Shown: positions 30,119-59,620, counted from the first letter of the stretch. The stretch: 64,000 bases of DNA from Thainema sp. (GCA_052168235.1 JBQLZK010000039.1:1-64000); one strand, 5' to 3'. Translations and numbers: made by a program. The notes: a model not told the origin generated them from the sequence alone.

Positions 30119-30190
30119 GCGGGTATAGCTCAGCGGTAGAGCGTCACCTTGCCAAGGTGAATGTCGCGCGTTCGAATCGCGTTACCCGCT
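30119..30190 (+). tRNA. tRNA-Gly (anticodon GCC)
   Basis: 72-nt cloverleaf GCGGGTA...TACCCGCT, anticodon arm CACC-TTGCCAA-GGTG, GTTCGAATC T-loop. Confidence 0.97.
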
Positions 30191-40335: not shown

Positions 40336-40407
40336 GCGGATGTAGTTCAGTGGTAGAACGTCAGCTTCCCAAGCTGAATGTCGTGGGTTCGAGTCCCATC
40401 ATCCGCT
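40336..40407 (+). tRNA. tRNA-Gly (anticodon CCC); probable integration site of the downstream element
   Basis: 72-nt cloverleaf GCGGATG...CATCCGCT, anticodon arm CAGC-TTCCCAA-GCTG, GTTCGAGTC; TATAAT -10 box at 40314-40319. Confidence 0.97.
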
Positions 40408-40639: not shown

Positions 40640-41812
40640 ATGGCTAAAGGACAAGTCAAAATCGAGGTTTACGCTGAGCGCTTAAGATTACGGTGGAGCT
40701 ATCAGGGTAAACGCTATTGTTTATCTGTTGGTTTACCCGACAGTGTGATTAATCGTAAGGTTGCTTCTCAGAAGGCTCAGCAAATAGAGTTGGATATGCT
40801 CAGCGGCAACTTTGATCCAAGTTTGGAGAAATATAGACCCGAGTCGGTTTCCTCAACATTCCCACTAAAATCAAGAAGAGTAAACGGGAGTCAAACTTTC
40901 TCTGAGGTTTTTGAACAACACTGGGACGAGTTTGTAGACGACAAAGAGCAGCGGCTAGATAACCCGTTTACCATTGTCGCGATGTACAACCCGATTCCCA
41001 AAAAGGTGCGCAAGTTTGGCCGCCAGCTTATCAGCTCTCAGGAGGCCCAAGAGTTTATCCACTTTATGCTTCAGGATGCGGCCCCAGCAACAATTAAAAA
41101 GCATGTCATTATCTTGAACGATTTCGGCAACTGGGTTCAGCAACACAAGTTGGTGAATACCGATTGGGAAAATCCATTTGCTGGTTTAACGAAATTGTGC
41201 CGTCCAGTCCCCCCACTAAAAGCCCCGCCCTTTAGTGAAACAGAAATTCAGCAAATCATCGATCAGTTCCAACGAGATCGCTACTATGCCTATTACACGA
41301 ACTATGTTCGCTTCTTATTTATGACTGGTTGCCGAACAGGTGAAGCCATTGGATTGCAATGGAAACACATTCGTTATGACGGCTTAGAAATCACGTTCAA
41401 CGAAACTTTAGTGAGAAAAGGAACTGGAACAGCACGTTTGCGAAAGGCGACAAAAACCAACCGTTCTCGGACATTTCCTTGTAATTATGAACTCCAGTCG
41501 CTTCTGCTGTCTATTCGTCCTGAAGGCTACAGTCCCGATATGTTGGTCTTTCCAAGTCCCAAGGGTAAACCAATCGATGCAACCAATTTTGTCAACCGAG
41601 CATGGCTGAGCGTTTTGAAGAAGTGTGGAATGACAAAAGAGAATGGGCTATATCGAACTCAGTACAATACTCGGCATACCTTCATAAGCCATATGCTGGC
41701 CAAGGGAATGTCAGTGATTGAGGTCGCGAAGTTAACTGGACATGATCCTAAAATTTTGTTGGATCATTATGCTGGTTTGATTAACAAAATTGAGGTGCCA
41801 ACTTTTTTCTAA
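40640..41812 (+). CDS. Tyrosine recombinase/integrase with N-terminal arm-binding domain
   Basis: N-terminal RLRLRWSYQGKRYCLSVG...IELDMLSGNFDPSLEKY; catalytic TGCRTGE, YNTRHT, GH, DHY. Confidence 0.93.
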   Translation: MAKGQVKIEVYAERLRLRWSYQGKRYCLSVGLPDSVINRKVASQKAQQIELDMLSGNFDPSLEKYRPESVSSTFPLKSRRVNGSQTFSEVFEQHWDEFVDDKEQRLDNPFTIVAMYNPIPKKVRKFGRQLISSQEAQEFIHFMLQDAAPATIKKHVIILNDFGNWVQQHKLVNTDWENPFAGLTKLCRPVPPLKAPPFSETEIQQIIDQFQRDRYYAYYTNYVRFLFMTGCRTGEAIGLQWKHIRYDGLEITFNETLVRKGTGTARLRKATKTNRSRTFPCNYELQSLLLSIRPEGYSPDMLVFPSPKGKPIDATNFVNRAWLSVLKKCGMTKENGLYRTQYNTRHTFISHMLAKGMSVIEVAKLTGHDPKILLDHYAGLINKIEVPTFF

Positions 41813-41917: not shown

Positions 41918-42559
41918 CTACAGTTTTCGGCTGAACCAAACCACTTTACCCATAAGGCTGACGCTCAGAGACTGTTCTGATAGCTCTAGTGAGAAATTTT
42001 CATATGCAAGGTTATCACTCAGTACTCTCAGTGTATGTTCTGCGACATATTGCAGACGCTTAATCAAAATATGATCATCCAGTTTCAACAAGTAGATTCC
42101 ATGATTCACTGCAGTTAAGTCACGTTCATTTGTATTGACTAGAACCAGATCTCCCATCTGGAGTGTGGGTTCCATACTTTCGTCTAAAACCTCTGTCAAA
42201 AAAAGGTTTTCAAATGATTTTGGAAATTGCTCCTTTAGCCAGTCAGTGTCAAAGGCTAACGGACTCTTATAAGAGTACTTTTGAGTCAAAGCCTTAATTG
42301 AATCTTGTGTTGCGACTTGGCCAGCAGCCAGCCACTCCACACTGACGTTTGCTGTGCGAGCTATAGCGAGCAAAGCGGGGCGAGTGGGTTCGCTTTGGCC
42401 GCTGAGATATTGACGGAGTACGGTATCCGAAAATCCGCAATTTCTCGCAAAGCCTCGGATACTCTGATCACCAATCGCTTTTTTTAAGCGAGCTGGAAAA
42501 TCATTGACTTCAACTTTACTCGCTGGGTTGTCATCCGGGAATGAGTCACACATGGGCAT
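41918..42559 (-). CDS. XRE HTH + S24 peptidase-like (cI/LexA-type) repressor
   Basis: HTH SIRGFARNCGFSDTVLRQYLSGQSEP; S24 motifs ESMEPT, LIKRL, SDNLAY, GKVVW. Confidence 0.9.
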   Translation of the reverse strand: MPMCDSFPDDNPASKVEVNDFPARLKKAIGDQSIRGFARNCGFSDTVLRQYLSGQSEPTRPALLAIARTANVSVEWLAAGQVATQDSIKALTQKYSYKSPLAFDTDWLKEQFPKSFENLFLTEVLDESMEPTLQMGDLVLVNTNERDLTAVNHGIYLLKLDDHILIKRLQYVAEHTLRVLSDNLAYENFSLELSEQSLSVSLMGKVVWFSRKL

Positions 42560-42650: not shown

Positions 42651-42980
42651 ATGCATGTCGAGGATATTAAAGCCGCTCTGCGAAAGCAGGGCTGGACCCT
42701 GGCCAGCATTGCAAATGAACTAGATATTGATCCATCAGCAGTCTCCCATGCTTTGACTCGACAACGATCACGTCGCATTGAACAGGCTATTGCCAGTAAA
42801 CTTGGCCGATCCCCTCAAGAGATTTGGCCCCATCGCTACCCGCGAGGAGCAGTAGACTATGACTCGATTTGTCAGCAAGCACGAAGCTATCCAGTATCTC
42901 AATCTCAGCGACTCGACTCTCAAGCGGTATCGTTCACAGGGGCAGCTTATCGAGGGTATCCATTGGGTTCGGATCAATAG
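42651..42980 (+). CDS. Ner/Nlp-family HTH transcriptional regulator
   Basis: EDIKAALRKQGWTLASIA...IEQAIASKLGRSPQEIWPHRY matches the phage Mu Ner/SfsB pattern. Confidence 0.85.
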   Translation: MHVEDIKAALRKQGWTLASIANELDIDPSAVSHALTRQRSRRIEQAIASKLGRSPQEIWPHRYPRGAVDYDSICQQARSYPVSQSQRLDSQAVSFTGAAYRGYPLGSDQ

Positions 42981-43113
42981 CCGCTGCATCCGGTACAACT
43001 TGGAATTGATTCAAGATTGGCTTCATAATCGCCATGATCCGGTGGCACACCAACGAGCCATCCATCTTTATCAATCCAGTTTGTTAAGTAATCAACGAAA
43101 ACCGTCTAAATGA
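42859..43113 (+). CDS. Excisionase/AlpA-like small DNA-binding protein
   Basis: EAIQYLNLSDSTLKRYR...EGIHWVRIN...RYNLELIQDW; GAGGAG SD at 42844-42849. Confidence 0.75.
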   Translation: MTRFVSKHEAIQYLNLSDSTLKRYRSQGQLIEGIHWVRINSRCIRYNLELIQDWLHNRHDPVAHQRAIHLYQSSLLSNQRKPSK

Positions 43114-43457: not shown

Positions 43458-45809
43458 ATGGCACAGTATGTTTATTCGGGGCGAGCTCGCCCCTGCCCGA
43501 TTTGCGATCGCACCAAAGATGCCGATTGCCGATGGACGGATCAGGTGGTCTTCTGCCATACCCACATCGATCAGGATGCCGAGGTGGCGGGGTACATTTA
43601 CCGGGGTGCAACTGCAGACGGCATGTGGGGCCAGTATTTCCTAGAGACGGCTCCGACTGAAAAGCCCGTGCGTCCATCACGTCGCCAGGACTACTTTTAT
43701 CCCAACCGGGCTGGACAACCGCTGGTCAAAGTGACTCGGGTAGATCGAGGCACTGGGGCCAAATTTTTTATTCAATCTCACTGGAATGGTCAGCAGTGGA
43801 TTAAAGGACTGACACCCGAGATCCGGTTGCAGGTGTCAATCTACCGATATTCGGACGTGCAACGAGCCATTTCAGCCGGTCAACCCCTTTGGATGGTAGA
43901 GGGTGAGGGCTGTGCCGATGCCCTGTGGCAGATTGGGATTCCGGCAACGACCACATTAGGGGGTTCCAAGAAATACCGTAGCTACGGGGACTATACCGAA
44001 GACTTAAAGGACGCTTGCCTTGTTCTGTGCCCGGATCGCGATCAGGTGGGTTTGGCCCATATGGCCGAGGTTGCCCAAGATTTTCCTGCTGCCCAGTGGT
44101 GCTATCCCTATCCCGATAGTCTGCGCTGGCAAAACCTACCGAAAAGTGGTGGACTCGATATCGCGGACTGGATTGCCGATGGGGCAACAGCTGAGCAAAT
44201 TCGAGCGGCTGTTGGCCAACGGCGATCGTTCCCACTTGCGTCTTCGACATCCCCCAAATCACTCGATTTACCGTCGCTAGAAGAACAGCTCCGTCACTAC
44301 TTGGCCGCCGATCATTCAGAACTTGAGTTAGCTGCTCAGGTCTTACAGTGGCATCGCGAATCCGGACTCTCGGCTAAGGATCTCTGGAGCCTGGTTAAAC
44401 CGATTCAAGCTGAACTAGAACAATCAGAAGAGCGGTGCGATCGCCAAGCTGAGATTCAGCAATTGCTGACCATTAGCGACTATCAGCTGCAATTGGGCAA
44501 GTATCTTCACCCCGATTTAGCTCAACCGCTGGAGCAGATTGCCCACTGGATTGGCGCAACCCCAGCGGCCATGCTCGTGACGCTGTTGCCAGTAGCGGCT
44601 TCCCTTCTGCGAGTGGGAACTGAATTAGAAATTGATGCCGGTATGGGGTTCTCTGTGCCGCCCATTTTGTTCACCGGACTGGTGGCTCCCTCCGGCAGCA
44701 AGAAGAGCCCAATTCAGCGTCAGATTTTAGGCCCACTCTCAAAGCTACAAGCCGAAGCCGATCAGGACTATGAGTATACCGTCTCTGAGTATGAGATCAG
44801 CCTGCGCGACTGGGAACACACCAAAGGAGATGACAGAGGGCTGCGACCCAGGAAGCCGACGCCCAAGGACTATCACACCTCCGATGCCACCCGAGAAGCG
44901 ATCGCCCGAATTCAGTCTCAGCAACCTGAACGCGGCATTCTCGTGGCTCCAGATGAGCTAGCAGGATTATTCAAAGGCCAAAACCAGTATCGCAACGGAC
45001 GTGGCAACGACAAAGAGTCACTGTTAACCGCCTTTGATGGCGCTGGACTCAAAGTGGATCGCGCCAGCGGCATGCGGATCAGCATTCCCCGAACCAGCCT
45101 GAGCATTACCGGCACGATTCAGCCCGATGTTCTGCGAGAGATGATGGGAGATTTTTCCGATGCAAATGGGCAGTGGGCGCGGTTTTTGTGGTGTCTCCTG
45201 CCGCTCAAGCCTGCCCCCTTTCCTCGGCAAACGGTACGCTATGACATTTCAGAACGACTTTACTGTGTCTATCAGCGATTAGAGGACTTTCCCGCCAACG
45301 GCTATCGACTGACCCCAGAAGCCAAGACCCTATTTGCCGACTGGTATGACCGACTTGATCACCTGCGGGTGATGGAAACGCATCCGGGATTACAGGCGGT
45401 TTACTCCAAGATGCAGGGCTACACGGGGCGACTATCACTGATTTTGCACTGTGTGAATGCAGCGGTAGACGGATGTCTACCAGCAGACGCCGTTTCGGCG
45501 CAAACGATGCGGAGCACCATCAAGCTGGCACGGTGGTTTATGGGGCAAGTGAAGCTGCTGTATGCAGAAGGTGACACGGTAGATGGAGCGCTGGAGTCGG
45601 TCTATACGAAGTTGATTCAGCTCTCGCGGATGCGCGGCTGGCTGCGAGCAAAAGATGTACGCAATTACGAACGCAGCTTACGGAAGGCGAGTGCAGAGGT
45701 GATTCGTGCTCACTTTCGAGAGTTAGAAACAATGGGGTATGGAGAAACAGCTGGCGTCGGCAATCGGTTACAGTGGCGTGCAACGGTAGACACGGTAGAC
45801 ATCCGGTAG
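43458..45809 (+). CDS. Replication protein: Zn-binding + Toprim primase domain fused to DUF3987 P-loop domain
   Basis: CPIC...C...FCH, MVEGEGCADAL, CPDRDQVG, DIADW; APSGSKKSP, PDELAG, SITGTIQP; CAGGAG SD. Confidence 0.85.
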   Translation: MAQYVYSGRARPCPICDRTKDADCRWTDQVVFCHTHIDQDAEVAGYIYRGATADGMWGQYFLETAPTEKPVRPSRRQDYFYPNRAGQPLVKVTRVDRGTGAKFFIQSHWNGQQWIKGLTPEIRLQVSIYRYSDVQRAISAGQPLWMVEGEGCADALWQIGIPATTTLGGSKKYRSYGDYTEDLKDACLVLCPDRDQVGLAHMAEVAQDFPAAQWCYPYPDSLRWQNLPKSGGLDIADWIADGATAEQIRAAVGQRRSFPLASSTSPKSLDLPSLEEQLRHYLAADHSELELAAQVLQWHRESGLSAKDLWSLVKPIQAELEQSEERCDRQAEIQQLLTISDYQLQLGKYLHPDLAQPLEQIAHWIGATPAAMLVTLLPVAASLLRVGTELEIDAGMGFSVPPILFTGLVAPSGSKKSPIQRQILGPLSKLQAEADQDYEYTVSEYEISLRDWEHTKGDDRGLRPRKPTPKDYHTSDATREAIARIQSQQPERGILVAPDELAGLFKGQNQYRNGRGNDKESLLTAFDGAGLKVDRASGMRISIPRTSLSITGTIQPDVLREMMGDFSDANGQWARFLWCLLPLKPAPFPRQTVRYDISERLYCVYQRLEDFPANGYRLTPEAKTLFADWYDRLDHLRVMETHPGLQAVYSKMQGYTGRLSLILHCVNAAVDGCLPADAVSAQTMRSTIKLARWFMGQVKLLYAEGDTVDGALESVYTKLIQLSRMRGWLRAKDVRNYERSLRKASAEVIRAHFRELETMGYGETAGVGNRLQWRATVDTVDIR

Positions 45810-46349
45810 ACACCTATGTCTACCGCTAAAAATGTTGATATGTAAAGGTTTGAGCCAAACGGTAGACCGGTAGACAGGTTTTACACATCTAGAGTGTCAA
45901 AAAACTGTCTACCGGTCTACCGAAATCGCCAAAGTGCTTATGAATAAAAGGTTTTAGCCGATAGACGGAGTGTCTACCAAGCGTCTACCGCTGTCTACCG
46001 CGTCTACCGAAATGAATCATCATCATTCAAGATGTGACACCAACCTCAATTCTCGAACTTGAGTCATGTGATGTAGCCTTCCTCAACGTCATCCAGATCC
46101 GGTAATCGATCAAAGTAGCGCAATGGTAGACACGGTAGACATCCGGCAGACATGAGTGTCTACCGCTAAAAGCGCTGCTGTGTAAGGGTTTGAGCAAAAC
46201 GGTAGACCAGTAGACAGGTTTTGCACGTTTGAAGTCTTCCAAAAAGCGTCTACTGGTCTACCGAAATCGTCGAAGTAGTGATGAATAAAAGATTTTAGCC
46301 GGTAGACGGAGTGTCTACCAAGCGTCTACCGCTGTCTACCGCGTCTACC
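45785..46349. repeat. Two ~225-bp copies (offset ~340 bp) of a palindromic GGTAGAC/GTCTACC heptamer array; probable replication origin
   Basis: 13 heptamers per copy (45785-46008 and 46125-46349) in the same order and spacing; inner arms GGTAGACCGGTAGACAGGTTTT / AAAAACTGTCTACCGGTCTACC. Confidence 0.85.
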
Positions 46350-47082
46350 AACAATCATGACCTTGATAGAGAAAAGTTAGAGAAGCATAACCTGATCTCA
46401 ACCTCTCGCAAATTTGGGCCACGATGACGGTTTGCTCATCTCGTTGCGCCCTGATCGGCCGCTCAGTTCATCCCAGTTCCTAGAAGATTTTCCTCTTCTG
46501 CCAACGATCCGGTGCTGACCCGGTAGTGGACGCTACTGTAGACCTCCGCGTAAGTCTACGCAGATGATTACGTACTCCTGTCGCCGTCTGAATGCGTTGG
46601 AAGGCACAACCCATCGGCCTAGACTTCAGAATTTGATATGAACATTCGCCATTCTGATTTAGCAGCTTCAATATCTATAAACATCACGATTAGAGGTAGT
46701 TGATTTACTCAATTTCATCTTCATAATCTGACCTATATTATTAACTGAATATGAAAGTCACTAAAGTTACAAAGAGCTACTTGTATCTCCTGATTCAGAG
46801 TTAGAACTCAAAACTAATCGTCGTCATAAAACATACATATCTCACTTAATCTTCTGATTAGCACATCACGAATGTGATGAACATCACGCAAGGTTACAAA
46901 AGTTTTTGTTATTCGATTTCTCTGATTAAGCTGTGCATAGAACAGGCATAAATGCCAGATCAAAATCTGTCACTCGCCCTGATCAATTTTTGATCGTTTT
47001 CATCAACTATTTGCGCAGACGTTATCCATGTAATGGTTGATTGATGTGACCCTTAACTGAATGCAATCTGACCTGATTCAAG

Positions 47083-47655
47083 GTGACTCAAATGATCAGT
47101 CAGAAGCGGCTAACCGATTCAACCCCAATCTCACACTGGCCGGTTTGGCTTCCATCTGTTCCTGTTCCAATTCGGTCGGTGTCTCTATCCGTGTGGATAA
47201 CCCTTGTCCTCTGCAGCCTTGTCCTTACCGTCCGGCTGCATGGCGTTCTTTGTCTAGTTCCCCTGATGATGGCCAGCCTCAGCGGATTGAGCTGGAGGTC
47301 AGCTCAGTCTCGCCGCTGCCGACGGCGTTCCCGTTCCCTGCCTCGCTGGCTACCACTGGTTAGCTGGATTCTGCTTTTGTTACTCGTTCTGTTCGCATTG
47401 CCTGCCCAGGCTCAGTTTTTCGGTAATGCCGAAAACTGGATGCAAACCACCCTGGGCGCAAATACGGGTGATGCTATTCCGCTCGTCTTCAACGTTCTGC
47501 GCGGCTTGTTCCTCCTCTATGTGGGAATCTCGCTGGTGCGGGTGATCAATAGTGCTCGCAGCGACGAAGATTGGCAAACAATTGCGCGCACCCCGCTCAT
47601 TATTATCATCGCCGTCACCGCTGGCGACATTTTGACCACGCTGATTACCGGCTAG
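47083..47655 (+). CDS. Probable conjugative pilin (VirB2-like; first gene of MPF_C-type operon)
   Basis: Signal-like LPAQA|QFF followed by two hydrophobic segments; position before the VirB3/VirB4-like genes. Confidence 0.65.
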   Translation: MTQMISQKRLTDSTPISHWPVWLPSVPVPIRSVSLSVWITLVLCSLVLTVRLHGVLCLVPLMMASLSGLSWRSAQSRRCRRRSRSLPRWLPLVSWILLLLLVLFALPAQAQFFGNAENWMQTTLGANTGDAIPLVFNVLRGLFLLYVGISLVRVINSARSDEDWQTIARTPLIIIIAVTAGDILTTLITG

Positions 47656-47719: not shown

Positions 47720-48076
47720 ATGCCATCTTCCTCCTTTCGTCCCGTCAACCCGATCTTAGGGGCACAGCCGCGTCTGGGGCCGATTCCCGCCGACCAGATT
47801 GTTCCCTGGTTCTGCATCACGGGCCTGTCCTACCTGATTGGTCGAGGCGTTGGCCTCAACTGGATTGCAATTGGCTTTCTGGCGGCTTGGGGCATGTCCA
47901 CCTGGTGGATTCTCACTGGTGGCCACAGCTGGACGTTTACCGCCAAATTTGTGCCGACTCCTACCTGGAGTCGCGGCTATGCCCGATATCTGAGGTTGAC
48001 CCAACATGAAACAGACCATCGGCAAACACCGACTGAAACTGGGCCGCCAGTTCATCAGCACCCTCACTCCCTTTGA
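47720..48076 (+). CDS. VirB3-like small membrane protein
   Basis: FRPVNPILGAQPRLGPIPADQIVPW, two TM segments, directly upstream of VirB4; ATG at 47720. Confidence 0.7.
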   Translation: MPSSSFRPVNPILGAQPRLGPIPADQIVPWFCITGLSYLIGRGVGLNWIAIGFLAAWGMSTWWILTGGHSWTFTAKFVPTPTWSRGYARYLRLTQHETDHRQTPTETGPPVHQHPHSL

Positions 48077-50816
48077 AGATGCCCTCCATCTAGCTGCCAT
48101 GCTGCGGATTGACCTGCGGGGGCGGCAGGTAGGAGCCTACGTGCTGGCGAAAGGCCAGAACCGAGAGCATCTCTGTATCGTTTTCGGCTTTGACTGTCGC
48201 GGCATTCATCCAACCCTGAACGATGAACAGGTTGAGACCGTCTTTAGCCAGCTCGAAGCCGGACTGAAAGACTTACCCGCCGGAGAGCGGCTGACGATTC
48301 ATCTTGGATCGGTGGCATCAGATCAAGCCCGCCAACTGGATCTGGCTCATCTGGTGGATGCAGCTCCGAGTAATCCCCTCAGGTTTCTCCTGACGGCAGA
48401 TCGGGCGCGCGTGCAGCAGCTGACGCAGCAGGGACTGCGCAAACCCAAGTTTCTGCGCCTGTATGTCACCTATACCGTTCACAGCGGTTCCGAGGGGGCT
48501 CAAGATCTGATTGAAAAGCTAATCGGTCGAGGTGAAACGCTGTGGAAGTCATTTACCGGAGAACTGCAGCAGGCCAAGAACCAGCGTCTACAAACCGTGC
48601 TTACCCAAGCCTTTACCGATGGCTTTCTGCTCTGGGAGCAGGTGCTGTCGAATAAAATGGGCCTCTCGGTGACGCCACTGGATGAAACCGAACTGTGGAC
48701 GCTGCTCTGGCAGCGTTTCAATACCAGCCGCCCGATTGATATCCCGCAGCTGATTCGCCTAGATGCTCAAGGACTACACGAGCAGGTGAATTCGGAGATT
48801 CACAGCACCACGCTGCTCACCCGAGCGGGGGTGCCCACCGCTGGCAGATCCTGGACAAAGGTCAACGGTCAGTACGTGGCTCCGCTGACGTTTCTAGAGA
48901 AACCCGGTGGCTGGGCCAATCCCTGGGCTCAGCTCCGCTATCTCTGGGACGTGCTGTCTCGGGACGCGGTGGTGAATACGGAGATGGTTTGTCAGCTGAC
49001 GCGAGCCAATGAGACGCTGGTCAAAACCACCGTGCAGCGAATGCTAAAGCAGTCGAATCTGACCGCTACGCTGGCCGAAGACAGCCACTCCGTTGATGTC
49101 GCTGCCGAGCTGAAGATGAAGCGCTCGATTGAAGCCCAAGCCGAGCTGTTTGAAGGAGCCCTGCCGATTCACACGGCGGTGGTCATGCTGGTACAGCGTC
49201 CCACGCTAGAGCAGCTGGATGAAGCCTGCCGCTATCTGCAAAGCTGCTTTCGTCGTCCCGCTTGGGTGGAGCGGGAACAAGACTATGCCTGGAGGGTGTG
49301 GCTGCAAACGCTGCCGATTGTCTGGGAAGCCTTGATGGCCCATCCCTTCAAACGACGACAGCTCTACCTGACGGGAGAAGTCCCTGGCTTGATGCCACTG
49401 GTGGTGACTCAACCCTGCGATACTCAGGGCTTTGAGCTAATTGCCGAAGAAGGGGGCCGTCCCGTTTATCTAGATCTGTTTACGCAGCACAAGAACCTGG
49501 GCCTGTTTGCCACCACTCGTGCAGGCAAGTCAGTGCTGGTGTCTGGGATTCTGACGCAGGCCCTGGCTCATCGCTTTCCAGTGGTGGCGCTCGACTTCCC
49601 TAAGCCGGACGGCTCATCTACCTTTACCGACTACACCCAATTTGTCGGTGGAGCCTATTTCGACATCTCACGGGAATCCAACAACCTGTTTGAACTCCCT
49701 GATCTCCGCCATCTGCCACCGGATGAACGCCAAACTCGGCTGGAGGATTTTCAATCGTTCCTGGAGTCGGCACTGCTGACAATGATCGTCGGCTCTAGCG
49801 CCAGTGGCTCGCTGATGACCCAGACGATCCGCTCCATCTTGGTGCTGGCATTGAATGCCTTCTTTGCCGATGCCCAGATTCAAACCCGCTACTGCAACGC
49901 AATGGCGGGCCGATTGGGCTCAGCGGCTTGGCAGGAGAGCCCAACGCTGGCTGACTTTTTGGCGTTCTGTACCCCAGAACAGCTCGATTTGCAGTCAGTC
50001 GGCGGCAACATTGAAGCCGCCCTGCAGATGATTGAACTGCGGCTGCGATTTTGGCTCTCCAGCCGCGTAGGACGCGCCATTTCAGCTCCATCGAGCTTTC
50101 CGACTGATGCGCAACTGCTGGTCTTTGCGCTGCGCAATTTAGCCAATGAGGAAGATGCTGCCGTGCTGGCGCTGTCAGCTTATGCAGCAGCCTTACGACG
50201 AGCCCTAGAAGCACCCGCCTCTATCTTCTTTATTGATGAGGCTCCAATTCTGTTTGAGTTTGATGAAATTGGCGCACTGATTGGCCGACTTTGCGCCAAT
50301 GGAGCCAAAGCCGGAATTCGAGTGATCATCTCAGCTCAAGATCCAGATACGGTGTACCAGTCGCCCGCCAGCTCCAAGATCTTTCAGAACCTCACAACGC
50401 GCCTAATTGGTCGCATCCAACCAACTGCGGTCGATAGCTTTGAGCGCATCCTCAAGTATCCGTCCAGCATCATCAGCCGTAACGCCAGCGAGAGCTTCTT
50501 TCCCAAACGAGAGGGACTCTACAGCCAGTGGCTCCTAGATCAGAACGGCCTGTATACCTACTGCCGCTACTATCCCGCCTTTGCCCAACTGGCCGCTGTC
50601 GCGAATAACCCCGATGAGCAGGCCACCCGTGATCTGGTACTCAGCCACGCCCCCGATCCATTTACTGGCCTGGCTGAATTTGCTCGGCTGCTGGTGTACG
50701 CCATCCAGTCCGGTGAGCCCCTCTCAGTCGTCACTGAACGCTGGTTGGCCGAGCGCAATCCCCACCCAGAAGTTCCGATTACCCAGCTCAAGTCGTTTCA
50801 CACAGGAGGTCACTGA
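48006..50816 (+). CDS. virB4: VirB4-like conjugation ATPase (cyanobacterial MPF_C type)
   Basis: 936 aa, Walker A ATTRAGKS, Walker B FFIDEAP, ANGAKAGIRVIISAQ. Confidence 0.85.
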   Translation: MKQTIGKHRLKLGRQFISTLTPFEDALHLAAMLRIDLRGRQVGAYVLAKGQNREHLCIVFGFDCRGIHPTLNDEQVETVFSQLEAGLKDLPAGERLTIHLGSVASDQARQLDLAHLVDAAPSNPLRFLLTADRARVQQLTQQGLRKPKFLRLYVTYTVHSGSEGAQDLIEKLIGRGETLWKSFTGELQQAKNQRLQTVLTQAFTDGFLLWEQVLSNKMGLSVTPLDETELWTLLWQRFNTSRPIDIPQLIRLDAQGLHEQVNSEIHSTTLLTRAGVPTAGRSWTKVNGQYVAPLTFLEKPGGWANPWAQLRYLWDVLSRDAVVNTEMVCQLTRANETLVKTTVQRMLKQSNLTATLAEDSHSVDVAAELKMKRSIEAQAELFEGALPIHTAVVMLVQRPTLEQLDEACRYLQSCFRRPAWVEREQDYAWRVWLQTLPIVWEALMAHPFKRRQLYLTGEVPGLMPLVVTQPCDTQGFELIAEEGGRPVYLDLFTQHKNLGLFATTRAGKSVLVSGILTQALAHRFPVVALDFPKPDGSSTFTDYTQFVGGAYFDISRESNNLFELPDLRHLPPDERQTRLEDFQSFLESALLTMIVGSSASGSLMTQTIRSILVLALNAFFADAQIQTRYCNAMAGRLGSAAWQESPTLADFLAFCTPEQLDLQSVGGNIEAALQMIELRLRFWLSSRVGRAISAPSSFPTDAQLLVFALRNLANEEDAAVLALSAYAAALRRALEAPASIFFIDEAPILFEFDEIGALIGRLCANGAKAGIRVIISAQDPDTVYQSPASSKIFQNLTTRLIGRIQPTAVDSFERILKYPSSIISRNASESFFPKREGLYSQWLLDQNGLYTYCRYYPAFAQLAAVANNPDEQATRDLVLSHAPDPFTGLAEFARLLVYAIQSGEPLSVVTERWLAERNPHPEVPITQLKSFHTGGH

Positions 50817-52689: not shown

Positions 52690-53427
52690 ATGGTGCAGTT
52701 AATTGAAAAGCGCAATACCCACTACCTGCCTCTGTTTGTCCTAGGCAGTGTTGGTCTGCAGCTAATCATGCTGGTGATGCTGTTCCGACAGGCCGGTGCG
52801 CTCAGTCGTCTCAGCCGCCAAGCCGCTCCCACACTCGTGCAGCTGCAGGATGGACAGGCAATTCGAGTGGGAGCGATGGCCGCTCAGGAGCGTGCCCCAG
52901 AAACGATTCGACGGTTTGTTAATGACACGCTGGTGCTGATGTTCAACTGGAGCGGCAGCTTACCGGCCACCACGGCTGAGCAGGCCCAGCAGCCCCAGCC
53001 GGATCCAGGACTGCCGGTTGAGGTCGAACGCGGTCAGCGCCAGGTCGCAACCGCCAGCTGGCAGGCCAGCTTTGCCTTCTCGGAAGACTTTCGCCCCGCG
53101 TTTCTCAAGCGAGTGGCGGAACTGACGCCGCCCGGTGTCTTCAGCGGCACCACGCAGGTGGTGATGGTGGTTAACCATGTGTCAGATCCCGTTGCTGTTG
53201 GAGAGGGACGCTGGCGCGTCACGGTTGTGGCGCATCTCTATGTCTTCGATGACACCAATGCGCTGGGTGAGGCTATTTCCTTTAATCGAGAAGTGTTTGT
53301 TGAAGCCGTCACCGCTCCAGCTATCCCGGAGGGCGATACGTCGCTGGAGCAGGCTATTTATCAGATTCGCCAAGCCGGACTACAAATCTATGCCATTCGA
53401 GAACTAGAACGGGAGGATTTGAAATGA
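52690..53427 (+). CDS. VirB8-like T4SS protein
   Basis: Single N-terminal TM followed by an alpha/beta periplasmic domain; GAGGAGG SD; operon position. Confidence 0.6.
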   Translation: MVQLIEKRNTHYLPLFVLGSVGLQLIMLVMLFRQAGALSRLSRQAAPTLVQLQDGQAIRVGAMAAQERAPETIRRFVNDTLVLMFNWSGSLPATTAEQAQQPQPDPGLPVEVERGQRQVATASWQASFAFSEDFRPAFLKRVAELTPPGVFSGTTQVVMVVNHVSDPVAVGEGRWRVTVVAHLYVFDDTNALGEAISFNREVFVEAVTAPAIPEGDTSLEQAIYQIRQAGLQIYAIRELEREDLK

Positions 53428-54911
53428 GTACACCTGACCCGCTCTGGGATGAGCCAGATATGGCGGACTTAGTCGGTCTGCAGCTGCCGGATGCGGCAGA
53501 TACAGATACCGAGGATGCGGCTCATCCGGTTAGTCCGACCGATTCATTACCTGCATCTGGGCCACTTCTAGATCCAGAGGATTTAGACGAGCAGGCGGTT
53601 GCAGGTCGGCATCGTTTATCGCTAGCCACTAATCCGTTTACCAAGCTGGGCATCGTCGCCGCTGGTACGGGGCTCGTGATTGGCGTGCTAGGAGTCTTCA
53701 CCCATAACGTTATGCAGAACAATCCCTCTCAGACCGCTCAAGAGGTAGACGCAGAGCGTGCCGAGCCTAGGGTTGAGGCTGAAGACTCCCTGACTCCGGA
53801 TGACCGGGGGCAACTGCTAACGGACTTGGCCCTGGGACAGCAGCAGGCAGAACTCAAAGCACTGGCTGAGGATCACCCTACCGTGCCAGCGACGGCTCCC
53901 CCCACGGAGAATCCGCCAGCCGGTGAAGCACCGACACAGCCTGTTTCCCCATCCCCTCAGCCTCAACCTGTCGTGTCGCGCTCGGTGCCTACTCCTGCAC
54001 CGCCTCGTCCGACTCTGACACCGATTGTCCCACCCATGGTTCAATCCAATCTTCCTCAACCTCAACCCGAACCGGATCCAATAGAGCAGCAGGAGCAGTG
54101 GCTGGCTCTATCCCAGGTGGGTAGCTATGGTCAAGGTGTTCCCCCTCGTTCCACTCAACCCAGTGATTCCGTTCCAGTGGCTCAATCGACTGAGTGGGAA
54201 CAGGCGGCCACACCACCTAGCCATCCTGCAATTAACGCTGCCGAAGAAGCCGCTATCTTGCAGGGCCAGCCCCTGCCGTCGTCATCTAGAACTCTAACCA
54301 CGGGTACTCAAGCCACCGCTGAGTTGACGACACCCTTGATCTGGACTGCCGCCATGGCAACGGAACGGCCTCAGGTGGTGGTGGAACTGACCGAGCCCCT
54401 GCTGACGGCGGAAGAGACAATTGTCCTGCCCGCTGACACACCGCTGGTAGTTCAGGTTGACGCCGTTGAGGAGAGTGGTTTTGTTCAGCTGCAGGTGGTG
54501 TCGTTCATCCAAGACGGCCAGGAGATGGCGCTACCAGCCGCAGCGATGCAGCTGCGCGGCCCAGACGGCACCCCACTTGTTGCTCAGCCGTATAGCGAGT
54601 CCAGCCCGGATCTGGTTGAGACCCTGCTCAGCCGGGCTGCCATCTCTGGCCTTGCCCGAGCCGCTGAGCTGATCAACCGACCGCAGTCCTCCACCGTGAT
54701 TTATGCAGCCGGAAGCCGCACGATTAGCCAAGAAAGTGGAGACCCCAATCTGTGGGCTGGTGTCCTAGAAGGCGCATTAGATCCGCTGATGGAGCAGTTG
54801 GCCGCCCAGAGCGATCCAAGGCCAGAGAACCCATTGGATCGCTTCCCGATTTGGTATCTGCCTGCCGGGACAGACGTGGACGTTTATATCCAGCAAACGG
54901 TGACGCTATGA
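53424..54911 (+). CDS. TrbI/VirB10-like protein
   Basis: TM, Pro-rich stalk, C-terminal beta domain ending WYLPAGTDVDVYI. Confidence 0.75.
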   Translation: MSTPDPLWDEPDMADLVGLQLPDAADTDTEDAAHPVSPTDSLPASGPLLDPEDLDEQAVAGRHRLSLATNPFTKLGIVAAGTGLVIGVLGVFTHNVMQNNPSQTAQEVDAERAEPRVEAEDSLTPDDRGQLLTDLALGQQQAELKALAEDHPTVPATAPPTENPPAGEAPTQPVSPSPQPQPVVSRSVPTPAPPRPTLTPIVPPMVQSNLPQPQPEPDPIEQQEQWLALSQVGSYGQGVPPRSTQPSDSVPVAQSTEWEQAATPPSHPAINAAEEAAILQGQPLPSSSRTLTTGTQATAELTTPLIWTAAMATERPQVVVELTEPLLTAEETIVLPADTPLVVQVDAVEESGFVQLQVVSFIQDGQEMALPAAAMQLRGPDGTPLVAQPYSESSPDLVETLLSRAAISGLARAAELINRPQSSTVIYAAGSRTISQESGDPNLWAGVLEGALDPLMEQLAAQSDPRPENPLDRFPIWYLPAGTDVDVYIQQTVTL

Positions 54912-55659: not shown

Positions 55660-57375
55660 ATGATGGATGATCGCTCTCGATTCAGACGCCGATGGCTGCC
55701 AATCCTCAGCCTATTAGTGCTTACGTTCGTAATGACGGTGCACAGCTGGAACAGTTTACCGGCTCGCTCCAGTCCTCAACCCGATTTGCCTATCCCTGTT
55801 ATTCAGGACGAGGACGTTGGCCTCCGACCCGACTGGACTCAGATCACGTTGCGGTCGCTGCCTGCGATTGCGACATCGGGTTCGTTTGACGCACCGACTG
55901 ATCTGATCCATCAGCTGGGCTACGATCCCTCTCGACGCTGGCAGGCCGGTCAGACGGCTGATCAATACCTGCGCCTGGGCGATTTCCAGGACAGCTTTCA
56001 GCTGCAGCAATTGACGCTCTCCGACATTGCAGCCTTAGTCGGCCTGGATGAGCAGACCCTCCGTCTAGCCGATTTAGCGCTGCTGCGCTGGCAAACCCTC
56101 TCCGATCTGGTGCAGGCTATTCCGACTCTGGCCGATTGGCCCGTTGCACAAGTGACTCCACTGGCTGATGTATTGAAGGGCACAATCAACCTTCAGGGCA
56201 CAATTGCCGAGGTGATTCAGGATTCAGTCTTGGCTGACCTGAGCCTGGCAGAACTGAATCTGGAGTCGTATGCGCTGAGTGCCATCCCCGGACTGATGGA
56301 GACCCCCCTGGACGCCTTTCGAGATTGGCAGCGCTCGGTGATCGGCGACATTCCGGGTTTGGCAGATGTGCCCGTCGCGGCCTTTCCTCATCCCATGGTT
56401 GAGCCGGGAATGGTCATGGGTCGAGTAGACGTAGTGTTTGGCGCAGCCGAAAGCGAGCGCACGACAACGATCAGCGGCAGTGATGTAGACGGATTTGCGG
56501 TTCCCTGTCAGACCCGCTGTGCCCATCTCGAACTGAGCCAGCCAGAGTGGATCAAGGGCCGCCAGTGGATTTCCGGCCAGTACCAGCAGGTCAACGGCGG
56601 TCGAGGCGTCTTAGCTTCGGTCAATGGAGGACGTGAACCAACCGGGCGACATCCCTTTGGCCCCGCGTTTAAGGTGGTGGTGCTAGAGACCGATGAAGCC
56701 ACCGGTACGGCAGAAACGGGACTGTACTTCCGTTTCTGCGTGCGCAATTCAGTGGTAGATCTAGGCTGTACCCCCTACTTCATTGGCCCCGTGCCCTGGC
56801 TGCCGGTGCAGGAAGAGGGTTGGGTGCTTCTCGGTTCCTTGCAATCGGAACTCACAGAACTAACAACGACTGAATCAGCTGCCGCCGCTGGGGCAGCCAA
56901 CACCATTGAGAGGCCGTCTGACCCCATCGGCAAAGCCTTCCATCATCCTGACAGCGCGACCCGTCACTTTCGCCATCCGGCCCCTGGGGTTCCCGTAATT
57001 CGCTCCTTTGGCTATCGCACCCATCCCATCCACGGCGATCGCCGTCTGCATTCAGGCATTGATCTCGACACTCCGGCTGACACTCTGATTCGAGCCGCAG
57101 CGGGCGGTCAGGTCACCTTTGCTGGGGTGAGTGGGTCGCTCACCACCGGCTACGGCAGGCTCGTCATCGTCGATCACGGCCAGGGGCTAGCAACCTACTA
57201 CGCCCACCTCCAAGATGTTTTAGTGCAAGCGGGAGACCTGATCGCTCCGGGCGATCCGCTGGGACATTCGGACAGCCGGGCGGATTCAACCGAGCCCCAC
57301 CTACATTTCGAGGTGCGCCAAAACGGTCAACCGCAAAATCCAATGAGCTATTTCAGGGGAGGACAAGGGTCATGA
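55660..57375 (+). CDS. T4SS-associated protein with C-terminal M23 peptidoglycan endopeptidase domain
   Basis: HSGIDL (HxxxD), YYAHL, EPHLHFEVR (HxH), PQNP. Confidence 0.85.
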   Translation: MMDDRSRFRRRWLPILSLLVLTFVMTVHSWNSLPARSSPQPDLPIPVIQDEDVGLRPDWTQITLRSLPAIATSGSFDAPTDLIHQLGYDPSRRWQAGQTADQYLRLGDFQDSFQLQQLTLSDIAALVGLDEQTLRLADLALLRWQTLSDLVQAIPTLADWPVAQVTPLADVLKGTINLQGTIAEVIQDSVLADLSLAELNLESYALSAIPGLMETPLDAFRDWQRSVIGDIPGLADVPVAAFPHPMVEPGMVMGRVDVVFGAAESERTTTISGSDVDGFAVPCQTRCAHLELSQPEWIKGRQWISGQYQQVNGGRGVLASVNGGREPTGRHPFGPAFKVVVLETDEATGTAETGLYFRFCVRNSVVDLGCTPYFIGPVPWLPVQEEGWVLLGSLQSELTELTTTESAAAAGAANTIERPSDPIGKAFHHPDSATRHFRHPAPGVPVIRSFGYRTHPIHGDRRLHSGIDLDTPADTLIRAAAGGQVTFAGVSGSLTTGYGRLVIVDHGQGLATYYAHLQDVLVQAGDLIAPGDPLGHSDSRADSTEPHLHFEVRQNGQPQNPMSYFRGGQGS

Positions 57376-57890
57376 CCATTAAACGATATCTTCGACTTGC
57401 CGTACTGGCGCTTTCGATGGTGCTAATCAGCGTGATGGCGGTGGTGAACTGGAACCTGGCGCGGGCCGCTGACCCCATTCCCAATGCGGTCTATGCCTGT
57501 CTGCCGCCTGCGACGCCAAGCGCAACTCTATGGGGCGTCACCGAGACTGACCCTGATCGCTATTACCTAATCGGCGTGGGCGATGCCGACCGCTATCAGG
57601 AGCAGCTGATTTATCTAGATGCCCAAGCCACCTGTCGTTCGCTGCTTCCCGACGATGATCGGGTGCTCAGCCATTTCCTGCCTCTCCATCTGGCCCGCGA
57701 GTTAGCTCTACAGCGATTTACCCGTGTCTTAGATGAGCAGGGCGGACGTGATGCCTATCAGCGGCAGTTGACGGCCTATCTCACGGCAGCTCCCGATGGC
57801 ATTAACAGTGAATTTCCGCCGGAATACATCTGGGCACTCGAACAGCTGGGCCTTAAGCTACCGGTCGATCACTATGAGGTGCTGCCATGA
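57372..57890 (+). CDS. Exported hypothetical protein of the transfer operon
   Basis: Signal peptide (LARA|A), ATGA coupling at both ends. Confidence 0.7.
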   Translation: MTIKRYLRLAVLALSMVLISVMAVVNWNLARAADPIPNAVYACLPPATPSATLWGVTETDPDRYYLIGVGDADRYQEQLIYLDAQATCRSLLPDDDRVLSHFLPLHLARELALQRFTRVLDEQGGRDAYQRQLTAYLTAAPDGINSEFPPEYIWALEQLGLKLPVDHYEVLP

Positions 57891-59620
57891 CCGATCTCAA
57901 TACGACACAGCCAGCTGCAATCGAACAACCCGGTGTGGCGTCTAGTGGATCTCTAGCCCAGCTGGCCCATTCCCTCTACTCTCGCAACGGTCTGATTCTG
58001 CTGGGATGTGTGGCTCTAATTGCAATTAGCTCACGGCTGGGCCATCGCCGATCTGGAAAGCTGGCGACCAGCCGATTTGGCAGTCGCACAGAGAAAGCAG
58101 CGGCTCGTAAGCGAGCGGTTCATCAAATGGCCGCCCGCCAGCATAATGCGGTTGCACTCTACATTGGCCAGCTAACTCGACCCAGTGCGCCTCAGTCGAT
58201 TTATCTGCCAGACCTGCAGCGGGGAGTGGCCGTCTGTGGCGGGCCAGGCTCCGGTAAGACCTTTAGCGTTATCGATCCGTTAATCCGCTCCGCCTTAGAT
58301 CAGGGGCTACCGATTGTGCTCTATGACTTCAAGTACCCGACGCAGAGCGCTCGTCATGCCGCCTATGCCGCCCAGCGCGGCTATGAGGTGCGGGTCTTTG
58401 CGCCGGGCTTTCCAGAGTCGGAGGTCTGTAACCCCATTGATTTCCTGCGCAGCGAATCTGATGCCGAGATGGCCCGTCAGATTGCGACGGTGCTGAACAA
58501 AAACTTTCGCCTGATGACCCAGAGCAGCGAAGACGGCTTCTTTGCAGCAGCGGGCGATCAGCTGACGGAAGCCCTGCTGATGTTGGCTAAATCAACTCCC
58601 TACCCGGATATCATGACCGCTCAGGCGGTGCTGGGCCTAACCAATCTGGGCAATCGGATTGCAGCGGCTCAGATGCTCAACAGCTGGATTCGCGTGTCCT
58701 TCAATCAGCTGATTGGCGTCAAAGATGCCGAAAAAACGGCCAGCGGCATTGTCGGGAGCGCCAGCGAAACGTTTACCCGCTTCATGAAAGAAGGCGTCCT
58801 GGGAGCCTTCTGTGGTCAAACCTCACTGCCTTTGGATCTCCAGGGTAAGCAGCTGCTGATTCTGGGATTAGATCGGGAGCGGCGGGATGTGGTGGGGCCA
58901 TTAGTGGCCACAATTTTGCACATGCTGGTGACGCGCAATGTTGCCCAGCGACGCCGCGAACCGCTGATCGTCGCCATTGATGAATTGCCGACTCTCTATC
59001 TGCCGACGCTGGTACAGTGGCTGAATGAAAATCGCGAGGATGGACTCTCGGTCATCCTCGGCTTTCAAAATCTGGTACAGCTCGAAAAAACCTATGGCCG
59101 CGAACTGGCTCGCGCCATCCTGGGAGCCTGTGCCACCAAAGCCATCTTCAATCCCCAAGAGTATGAAGCGGCTCGCATGTTCTCTGACTTTCTCGGGGAT
59201 CAAGAGATTCGCTACACCCAAACCTCTCGCAATCGCGGTGGTGGCAAGACCAGCACGACGCGGTCTGAGCAGGAGCGGACGCGCAAGCTGTTTGAACCGA
59301 GCCAGTTTCTGCGCCTGCCGCCCGGCAAATGCATCCTGATTAATCCCGGATTTGCTTCCCGAGGGGAAGCGGCTATTCCCATCCAGCAGGCGATCCGGAT
59401 TCCGAAGGCAGACGTGCAGGCAATTGCCGCCAGTGAAGCCCTCTGGAGCAAGATTCAGGCCCGCTTGGTTCAGCGCAGTCCCCAACGGCTGGCCACCGCT
59501 GCGGATTTAGAGCAGCGCCGACAGCTGGTTGAAGCGATGCTGCCAGAACCCGCTGCCCCCGTTACATCGGCCTACCCAGATCCGGCGGGCCTGATCGATA
59601 AGTACAGCAGTTTGCTATAG
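57887..59620 (+). CDS. virD4: Type IV coupling protein (VirD4/TraD-like)
   Basis: N-terminal TM, Walker A GGPGSGKT, YDFKYP, Walker B VAIDELP, LGFQNLVQLEKTYG. Confidence 0.9.
   Translation: MTDLNTTQPAAIEQPGVASSGSLAQLAHSLYSRNGLILLGCVALIAISSRLGHRRSGKLATSRFGSRTEKAAARKRAVHQMAARQHNAVALYIGQLTRPSAPQSIYLPDLQRGVAVCGGPGSGKTFSVIDPLIRSALDQGLPIVLYDFKYPTQSARHAAYAAQRGYEVRVFAPGFPESEVCNPIDFLRSESDAEMARQIATVLNKNFRLMTQSSEDGFFAAAGDQLTEALLMLAKSTPYPDIMTAQAVLGLTNLGNRIAAAQMLNSWIRVSFNQLIGVKDAEKTASGIVGSASETFTRFMKEGVLGAFCGQTSLPLDLQGKQLLILGLDRERRDVVGPLVATILHMLVTRNVAQRRREPLIVAIDELPTLYLPTLVQWLNENREDGLSVILGFQNLVQLEKTYGRELARAILGACATKAIFNPQEYEAARMFSDFLGDQEIRYTQTSRNRGGGKTSTTRSEQERTRKLFEPSQFLRLPPGKCILINPGFASRGEAAIPIQQAIRIPKADVQAIAASEALWSKIQARLVQRSPQRLATAADLEQRRQLVEAMLPEPAAPVTSAYPDPAGLIDKYSSLL

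Follow-up and report, generated by a model that had tools for sequence, protein, structure and literature searches.

What is a long, palindromic array of short repeats doing at the end of a replication gene, when it begins inside the last codons of that gene and is then repeated a little further on? The question is raised by a 64,000-nucleotide stretch of Thainema sp. DNA (GCA_052168235.1 JBQLZK010000039.1:1-64000, hereafter "the window"), in which two arrays of the heptamer GGTAGAC follow one another at the 3' end of rep, a gene for a primase-helicase-type replication protein (Rep). Judged from gene content, the module of rep (with integrase, repressor and excisionase-like genes at a tRNA-Gly gene) belongs to an integrative conjugative element of a filamentous cyanobacterium, since it is followed by type IV secretion genes. 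We think that the array is probably the vegetative replication origin of this element, and that it would be recognised by the element's own Rep. By analogy, the best reading is that it resembles the self-loading primase-helicase origins of the Staphylococcus aureus pathogenicity islands (SaPI) and phage-inducible chromosomal islands (PICI).

GGTAGAC occurs 30 times as an exact match in the window, against a mean of 3.80 and a maximum of 10 in 100 dinucleotide-preserving shuffles (none of which reaches 30), and 22 of the 30 matches lie within 45785-46349, 12 in the first array copy and 10 in the second. When one mismatch is allowed, each of the two arrays (about 225 bp) has 13 sites, and forward (>) and reverse (<) sites follow one another in the same order in both copies, >>> < (36 nt) >> (31 nt) << (38 nt) > <<<<. 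The heptamers are spaced by 8-13 bp inside the clusters; forward sites predominate in the left half and reverse sites in the right, each outer cluster having one inverted site, and G+C is 0.32 in the 31-nt centre and 0.33-0.37 in the 36-38-nt spacers, as compared with 0.55 in rep. The copies are direct repeats of each other (period 340/341 nt, 82-90% identical), and each unit is in itself an imperfect palindrome whose central arms (45860-45887 and 45895-45922, 28 nt) are 89% complementary. An earlier note on this DNA had already described two arrays of 13 heptamers in this order and the inverted-repeat unit, and both the site map and the repeat analysis bear it out. The three variants that it listed in copy 2 are indeed there (GGCAGAC at 46145, AGTAGAC at 46209 and AGTAGAC on the minus strand at 46248, the other 10 sites being exact); it had missed a single variant in copy 1, GATAGAC at 45960, which accompanies 12 exact sites. 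The extra pair that it placed near 46539-46560 exists in degenerate form, as TGTAGAC at 46537 (+) and CGTAGAC at 46554 (-). It did not mention a further palindrome, GGTAGAC-N4-GTCTACC, which is located within rep itself (45464-45481).

The first array is continuous with the gene. Its first heptamer begins 25 nt ahead of the rep stop codon, the first three heptamers double as the end of the coding sequence (the protein ends in ...ATVDTVDIR), and translation places the TAG (45807-45809) inside the third heptamer, as had been noted earlier. The tail that follows the C-terminal domain of Rep is encoded by the iterons themselves (TVD is ACG GTA GAC), and reads KVD, KID, SVE or VVG in other lineages.

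A homologue scan with one genome per species returned 80 loci, the nearest Rep relatives being found in Nodosilinea, Leptolyngbya, Leptothoe and Halomicronema. Every one of the 21 loci that have a 75-82% identical Rep and enough downstream DNA carries a GTAGAC array at the rep 3' end, whose start overlaps the last ~14 nt of the protein match and whose sites stand in the order of the window (>>> < >> << > <<<). In most of these close relatives Rep has 801 residues and reads through four heptamers; a 10-nt deletion in the window produces the earlier stop. When the arrays of 22 non-identical relatives are compared with copy 1, heptamer columns are 87% identical and spacer columns 56%, a gap that is reached by 0 of 5000 random placements of 13 heptamers. 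The order integrase, repressor, helix-turn-helix (HTH) gene, HTH gene, rep is also found ahead of the array in close relatives, and the DNA after the array varies among them (toxin-antitoxin genes, a DUF499 gene, or type IV secretion genes at differing distances). Elements with a GTAGAC-type array may share one genome: three do so in Nodosilinea sp. AN01ver1 (L011, L017, L018), two in Leptolyngbya sp. CCNP1308 (L012, L022) and two in Nodosilinea sp. LEGE 07298 (L003, L007). If such elements were excised together, competition between them for one Rep would be expected.

Among distant homologues (30-50% identity) arrays of other motifs are found at the same place. It was possible to score 58 of the 80 loci; 16 were left out since the match ends before the C-terminus or the contig ends, and 6 since the locus is below 4 kb. 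The most repeat-dense 400-bp segment of the locus is at the rep 3' end in 45 of these 58 (all 20 close loci and 25 of the 38 distant ones), and six further distant loci have at least 10 copies there, outscored by another array elsewhere in the locus. The repeated motif (6-9 nt) differs by locus (TGGTGACA, GTGGACA, TATCCACA, TGGGGACA, CTGCTGACA, ATTAGAC, AATAGACA, GTTGACA, GTTGTAGGTG and others), and whatever the motif, a cluster of forward sites again precedes one of reverse sites. In four loci (L027, L060, L063, L067) the repeated word of the array at the rep 3' end is (G)TATCCACA, which resembles the DnaA-box consensus and raises the question of whether some members of the family recruit the DnaA of the host.

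Plasmids give a similar picture. Among eleven complete records, six have clear arrays abutting the end of the rep homology, namely a 7.6-kb plasmid of Oscillatoria PCC 7112 (GTCCAC x12), a 7.0-kb plasmid of Microcystis NIES-2549 (GGTGAC x16), two Crinalium plasmids, and plasmids of Scytonema and Planktothrix. Crinalium PCC 9333 has three co-resident related plasmids with three different motifs. The question posed by the earlier note, whether homologues carry arrays with motifs of their own at the rep 3' end, thus finds a positive answer in these distant loci and plasmids. We also observed that Rep homologues range from 783 to about 1100 residues in length, and that annotated rep coding sequences of plasmids extend for several hundred bases past the end of the homology, through the arrays (L081 4504-7383; L083 13096-16254; L084 35038-38337; L085 2116-5085; also L086-L090); these may be artefacts, annotation having run on through repeat DNA that lacks stops.

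If Rep recognises the array, one would expect the motif to follow the part of the protein that binds it. A conserved domain makes up the last ~65 residues of Rep, and in pairs of homologues with 80-100% identical helicase domains this domain is 87% identical when the motif is the same (n = 32) and 59% identical when it is different (n = 11). The gap is also seen in the 50-80% bins of helicase identity and is absent below 50%. Two comparisons illustrate it well: L051 and L059 have 96% identical helicase domains, C-terminal domains that are only 59% identical, and different motifs (CCGACA and GACTAC), whereas L051 and L068, with helicase domains 86% and C-terminal domains 95% identical, have a motif in common. 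On a finer scale, the base that precedes GTAGAC shifts in concert within an array (T in 8/11 sites of L015, A in 14/15 of L040, G in 12/12 of window copy 1). In these alignments, then, the motif co-varies with the C-terminal domain and not with the helicase domain, as is predicted if a binding domain and its site evolve together.

Rep itself has a single Pfam match, DUF3987 (residues 368-703, E = 6e-50), and K416 of its Walker A motif and D499/E500 of its Walker B motif are invariant in 25 homologues. Helicase activity in the 5'-3' direction has been shown for one DUF3987 protein, which has Walker A/B motifs and partners with a primase (PMC11724360). The N-terminal third also has residues that are invariant in the same 25 homologues (C13, C16, E148-G149-E150 and D193/D195). 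Concerning this region the earlier note spoke of Toprim: the conserved motifs favour this label, as does a language-model look-alike search with residues 1-265, which leads to Toprim_2 and Zn_ribbon_DnaG clusters (score 0.95), whereas the Pfam search of Rep returns no Toprim match at E <= 10. We thus retain "Toprim" as a supported lead and not as a family assignment. For this region, a tblastn search matches phage primase/helicase genes, and sequence searches against solved structures (with a whole-protein profile, the N-terminal 265 residues, the C-terminal 118 residues and a 49-member C-terminal profile) gave nothing significant. The N-terminal ~260 residues recur, at 45-63% identity, in fusion with ATPase/helicase domains of five or more other kinds (VirE/VapE PF05272, AAA_25 PF13481, DnaB_C PF03796, DUF5906 PF19263 with D5_N, and DUF927 PF06048), so that domain shuffling in cyanobacteria has evidently affected the primase module on a large scale.

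In PICI and SaPI, as these are described, the origin lies immediately 3' of pri/rep and consists of six to twelve iterons of 5-7 nt, some of them inverted, in two opposed sets with AT-rich DNA between them; a winged helix at the C-terminus of Rep recognises the Rep-specific iterons, Rep acts as its own helicase loader, and pri-rep-ori suffices for autonomous replication (PMC6092414, PMC9371898, bioRxiv 10.64898/2026.10.17.759575). The locus studied here has the same gene order (integrase, divergent repressor, small HTH gene of xis- or AlpA-like type, (pri)rep, origin), the same position of the putative origin directly 3' of rep, short iterons in two opposed sets, and a Rep helicase (sometimes fused to a primase in SaPI/PICI) that would double as initiator. 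It differs in several respects: the helicase domain is DUF3987 instead of SF3 or MCM-like, the AT-richer centre has 31 nt at 32% G+C instead of the roughly 100 bp reported for SaPI5, the array overlaps the coding end of rep and is duplicated, the host is a cyanobacterium, and conjugation genes stand in place of phage-packaging or interference genes. The origin would thus work like those of SaPI/PICI, and the left half of the element looks PICI-like, yet we would place the element outside that family because its helicase domain differs and conjugation genes replace packaging genes.

The earlier note had proposed iteron-like sites for a Toprim-DUF3987 protein in an origin like those of P4 and PICI. 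The comparative support for such an origin now appears strong, because the array at the rep 3' end is kept in all the close relatives, arrays with motifs peculiar to them are found in homologues, the C-terminal domain of Rep changes along with the motif, and the layout is that of PICI/SaPI. As for P4, its alpha protein combines primase, helicase and C-terminal origin-binding domain in one polypeptide and uses short iterons in both orientations; two iteron clusters, ori and crr, are both needed in cis and lie kilobases apart. One multi-domain Rep and two iteron clusters on one replicon are thus points of resemblance, but 19 of the 21 relatives have one array, the copies are 340 nt apart in the window, and the helicase is of another family. 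PICI Pri-Rep proteins are themselves described as distant relatives of P4 alpha (PMC6092414). Another multifunctional primase/helicase Rep, ORF904 of the archaeal plasmid pRN1, has an essential origin directly downstream of its gene; unlike the Rep studied here, it combines a prim-pol (AEP) primase with an SF3 helicase, and the abstract, which gives the origin as 166 bp, mentions no heptamer array (PMC4234260).

Two other identities were considered and rejected. Classical iteron plasmids have winged-helix initiators without helicase or primase and direct iterons of 17-22 bp (6 nt in pMBL6842), and a classical (Rep_3/RepA) theta origin does not fit a Rep without a Rep_3 match and 7-bp repeats in both orientations. 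The experimentally supported Reps of cyanobacterial plasmids, CyRepA1/A2 and CyRepX1/X2, have helicase-type domains (DUF3854 + DEXDc in CyRepA, DEXDc/HELICc in CyRepX) and homologues that are also chromosomal, according to the papers that describe them (PMC10079941, PMC9978351, bioRxiv 10.1101/2023.10.09.561360); identity of our Rep with either is rejected on domain content. By Pfam, Rep has only DUF3987, and shows no SF3 or MCM-like helicase type, no Rep_3 and no DUF3854 + DEXDc.

The mechanism that we propose runs as follows. Rep would unite in one polypeptide a Zn/Toprim-like primase region at the N-terminus, the DUF3987 ATPase and the ~65-residue C-terminal domain. Once the element has been excised, probably under the control of the S24 repressor, the C-terminal domains of Rep would bind the 7-bp sites. 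Since sites of the left half point rightward and those of the right half leftward, two Rep oligomers would face each other, assembled across the AT-richer centre and the spacers, and could then open the duplex and self-load onto it as helicases, no dedicated loader being needed, after which the primase region of Rep would prime synthesis. As the final codons of rep already belong to the origin, protein and site would be inherited and exchanged as one specificity cassette. We infer binding, melting, self-loading and priming from these comparisons, as we do any role of copy 2.

Several points weigh against an origin of this kind. No clear array is seen in 7 of the 38 distant loci scored; arrays are weak or atypical in 3 of the 11 plasmids, and none is present in Crocosphaera 51142 plasmid A and the Picosynechococcus 8807 plasmid, whose Reps are the most distant homologues (26-30% identity). 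Of the three Crinalium plasmids, only one shows an extreme of cumulative GC skew within 1 kb of its array. The AT-richer stretches of the array are short (31-38 nt) and only moderately AT-rich. The C-terminal domain, when searched in the Protein Data Bank and Pfam (including with 49 domains), yields only a mixture of sub-threshold HTH-type hints, and its look-alike search gives a lead to MCM winged-helix domains with a score of only 0.84. This domain also adjoins the array, so block recombination could produce the co-variation with the motif by linkage alone. Finally, copy 2 is dispensable for the family, and its conservation could also reflect gene conversion.

This leads to the second array, on account of which the earlier note had spoken of a candidate dual origin. 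The origin reading is supported and the dual part is not established: 19 of the 21 close relatives have a single array. A second one is present only in L005 and L008 (at 1659 and 973 nt), where it is preceded by a ParE/PF03693 pair and ~55 nt of the rep 3' end at 90% identity. Between copies 1 and 2 of the window identity is 86%, as against 74% at most with any other array in the comparison, and the duplication junctions of the window differ from those of L005/L008, so that its duplication is apparently either separate from theirs or since homogenised. Partial duplications are seen elsewhere (a half-array repeat in L043, 84-nt units in L080). The 24 nt ahead of copy 2 are collinear with the array and match the rep 3' end in 18 of 26 nt, a score reached by 12 of 1000 shuffles; the decayed rep 3' end that had been claimed there is thus present, if weak. 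Copy 2 appears to be a later, lineage-specific tandem duplication of ~26 nt of the rep 3' end together with the array. Remnants of the ParE/antitoxin pair were looked for after both copies, and the alignments are within or near the shuffle range (tblastn E >= 16); we claim none.

Does copy 2 do anything? It may be a functionless by-product of tandem duplication or recombination at a hot spot for cargo insertion, with only copy 1 being of importance. We do not favour this possibility, although we take it seriously, given the prevalence of single arrays in relatives, the high variability of the region past the array, and the independent recurrence of array duplications and expansions (L005/L008 with other junctions, L043, L080). 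The pattern of divergence speaks against it: the copies differ in 27 of 133 spacer columns (20%) and in 4 of 91 heptamer columns (4%; Fisher p = 6e-4), which agrees with the earlier remark that the spacers have diverged more; the heptamers of copy 2 have undergone 3 changes in 91 positions when ~9 would be expected from drift at half the spacer divergence (binomial P = 0.014), and AGTAGAC, which accounts for two of its three variants (at sites 6 and 7), corresponds to states often seen in relatives. Because its heptamers are kept, copy 2 is probably still a locus to which Rep binds. It is not, on this comparison, a required part of the origin, and the second array would not belong to the basic mechanism, since 19 of 21 relatives have one array. 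Most likely, copy 2 would offer Rep an additional place to bind, and would serve as a second site of initiation or as a determinant of copy number or incompatibility. In plasmids P1 and F, extra iteron clusters outside the minimal origin (incA and incC, respectively) can titrate or handcuff Rep and so set copy number and incompatibility.

Arrays of short repeats can also belong to small regulators, and one may ask whether the arrays are bound mainly by another small protein of the element (a ribbon-helix-helix or HTH protein, or the PF03693 antitoxin in relatives), in which case they would serve for partition as a centromere, as an operator, or for the control of copy number. Two observations could be cited in favour. 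In at least 11 close relatives (L005:10560-11820, L008:10560-11134; also L002, L004, L009, L012, L013, L017, L021, L025, L038) the array is immediately followed by genes for a ParE toxin (PF05016) and a PF03693 antitoxin, in convergent orientation to rep; in L005 and L008 this pair stands between the two arrays. In addition, seven Microcoleus-type loci (L028, L029, L033, L051, L060, L068, L072) have a second, different array of motif (T/C)TAGACA, 500-1270 nt past the rep homology, which flanks a small conserved ORF (open reading frame; 500-1250 nt past rep) beginning VSTMSQSQVVSFRASGHFLNWIE... and followed by a coiled-coil-like ORF; this second array is possibly a separate operator or centromere. 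The PF03693 antitoxin PrpA of the PrpA/PrpT system is reported to bind origin iterons and to set the copy number of pMBL6842, and its counterpart stands beside the array in relatives of our element; however, PrpA competes there with Rep on an origin, which rather supports the origin reading (PMC7848731). Furthermore, rep is the only constant companion of the array, which always abuts or overlaps its 3' end, the motif tracks the C-terminal domain of Rep, the window has neither a toxin-antitoxin pair nor a credible small ORF beside its arrays, and plasmids of ~7 kb have the array without recognisable partition genes. We therefore consider a small protein as the main ligand improbable.

Least probable of all, in our opinion, is that the palindromic unit acts as a DNA structure, an oriT-like or single-strand-origin hairpin used during single-stranded transfer by the type IV secretion system: the 233-nt unit does fold strongly as single-stranded DNA (-61.7 kcal/mol, z = -12.5, with 0 of 200 shuffles folding as well), the element has conjugation genes and the primase-like domain of Rep could prime on a hairpin, but in 24 aligned arrays only heptamer-heptamer pairs are predicted (covariation term +0.11 kcal/mol, no co-variation in spacers), arrays are also present on plasmids typed as non-mobilizable and without relaxase genes, and no relaxase or nic-like context adjoins the array in the window. 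A conserved hairpin as main explanation was dropped on the same consensus folding, and the palindrome seems to reflect symmetric placement of the sites and no selected hairpin.

The features of the element are collected in Table 1. The window contains a second tRNA-Gly gene (anticodon gcc, 30119-30190), and past the coupling protein gene a large ORF (61738-63999) with N6-methyltransferase-like and helicase (ResIII/DEAD/AAA_34) matches runs off its end. No relaxase family was found among the window ORFs scanned, no repeat of at least 13 nt from the tRNA region recurs downstream within the window as an att-type repeat would, and the right end of the element is probably beyond the window. No phage packaging gene was detected in the window either, the downstream genes being VirB4-, TrbI- and VirD4-like genes and that of an M23 peptidase. 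Between copy 2 and the first ORFs of the conjugation region, 711 nt (46350-47060, 41% G+C) have no credible ORF and are not conserved in relatives, with the exception of 37 nt near 47064-47100 that match L001. A promoter/terminator scan found no more than in shuffles, and two sub-threshold microRNA look-alikes on the central hairpin, the only Rfam results, were dismissed as chance.

Table 1. Features of the Thainema sp. element, in window coordinates (., no strand assigned).
Feature	Position	Strand	Basis or remark
tRNA-Gly(ccc)	40336-40407		Left end of the element
Tyrosine integrase	40640-41812	+	Pfam; starts 233 nt after tRNA-Gly(ccc)
HTH+S24 repressor	41918-42559	-	Divergent
HTH_35 small gene	42651-42980	+	
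HTH_17 small gene	42859-43113	+	
rep, 783-residue primase-helicase-type replication protein	43458..45809	+	ORF and translation; Pfam DUF3987; homologues on cyanobacterial plasmids
N-terminal Zn-ribbon/Toprim-like (primase-like) region of Rep, residues 1-265	43458..44252	+	Conserved motifs and look-alike search; lead only
Isolated GGTAGAC-N4-GTCTACC palindrome inside rep	45464..45481	.	Exact scan; the same pair is at the equivalent place in L001
C-terminal domain of Rep, residues ~716-778, putative iteron-recognition domain	45603..45791	+	Diverges with the motif, independently of the helicase domain
Array copy 1, candidate origin, apparently ancestral and contiguous with rep	45785..46008	.	13 sites: 12 exact GGTAGAC/GTCTACC and 1 variant
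Centre of symmetry, candidate melting region	45860..45922	.	Inverted repeat; inner >> and << sites around 31 nt (45876-45906) with G+C 32%
Inter-copy spacer	46009..46124	.	Last ~24 nt (46100-46123) resemble the rep 3' end ahead of copy 1
Array copy 2	46125..46349	.	13 sites: 10 exact and 3 single-base variants
Extra degenerate pair, TGTAGAC 46537(+) and CGTAGAC 46554(-)	46537..46560	.	One-mismatch scan; surroundings (46350-47060) not conserved in relatives
VirB4/TraC-like	48006-50816	+	
TrbI/VirB10-like	53424-54911	+	
M23 peptidase	55660-57375	+	
VirD4-type coupling protein	57887-59620	+	

Is such an origin new? No description of Reps of the DUF3987 type, or of their arrays, in plasmids or islands of cyanobacteria was found in the literature searched (older subscription work, such as that on pDU1 and pANS, being outside the search), and searches on iterons in cyanobacterial plasmids, on integrative conjugative elements in cyanobacteria and on pANS found nothing relevant. 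The word "iteron" does not occur in the papers on the CyRep proteins (PMC10079941, PMC9978351, bioRxiv 10.1101/2023.10.09.561360); for pSYSA, a priming that involves an mRNA/antisense RNA pair upstream of the rep gene is proposed. The array, most likely the replication origin of the element, would be of a type familiar from phage satellites for which, within these searches, there is no earlier description in this large family of cyanobacterial plasmids and islands. Going further, we suggest tentatively, and with more doubt than conviction, that Rep (Zn/Toprim-like region, DUF3987 and C-terminal domain) and the array overlapping its 3' end define a large, undescribed class of cyanobacterial replicons, comprising small and large plasmids and tRNA-integrated conjugative or defence islands, in which the last ~65 residues and the array would be an exchangeable cassette that makes replicons compatible, and duplicated arrays and the PF03693 antitoxin would be devices of copy number and incompatibility on the excised element.

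What would this mean for the biology of the family? Few origins of cyanobacterial plasmids have been defined, and vector tools are accordingly scarce, as pointed out in PMC10079941. The present analysis predicts a compact cassette of rep and a ~225-bp origin, and the natural variants of the 6-9-nt motif, with their matching C-terminal domains, could give sets of compatible shuttle replicons. It would also extend the design of the self-loading primase-helicase origin to the DUF3987 helicase family and to conjugative elements. Pairs of the L051/L059 type, with 96% helicase identity and another C-terminal domain and other iterons, amount to a natural experiment on the co-evolution of initiator and origin. 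The locus would thus be of more interest as an entry to a widespread class of cyanobacterial replicons with a swappable specificity cassette than by itself.

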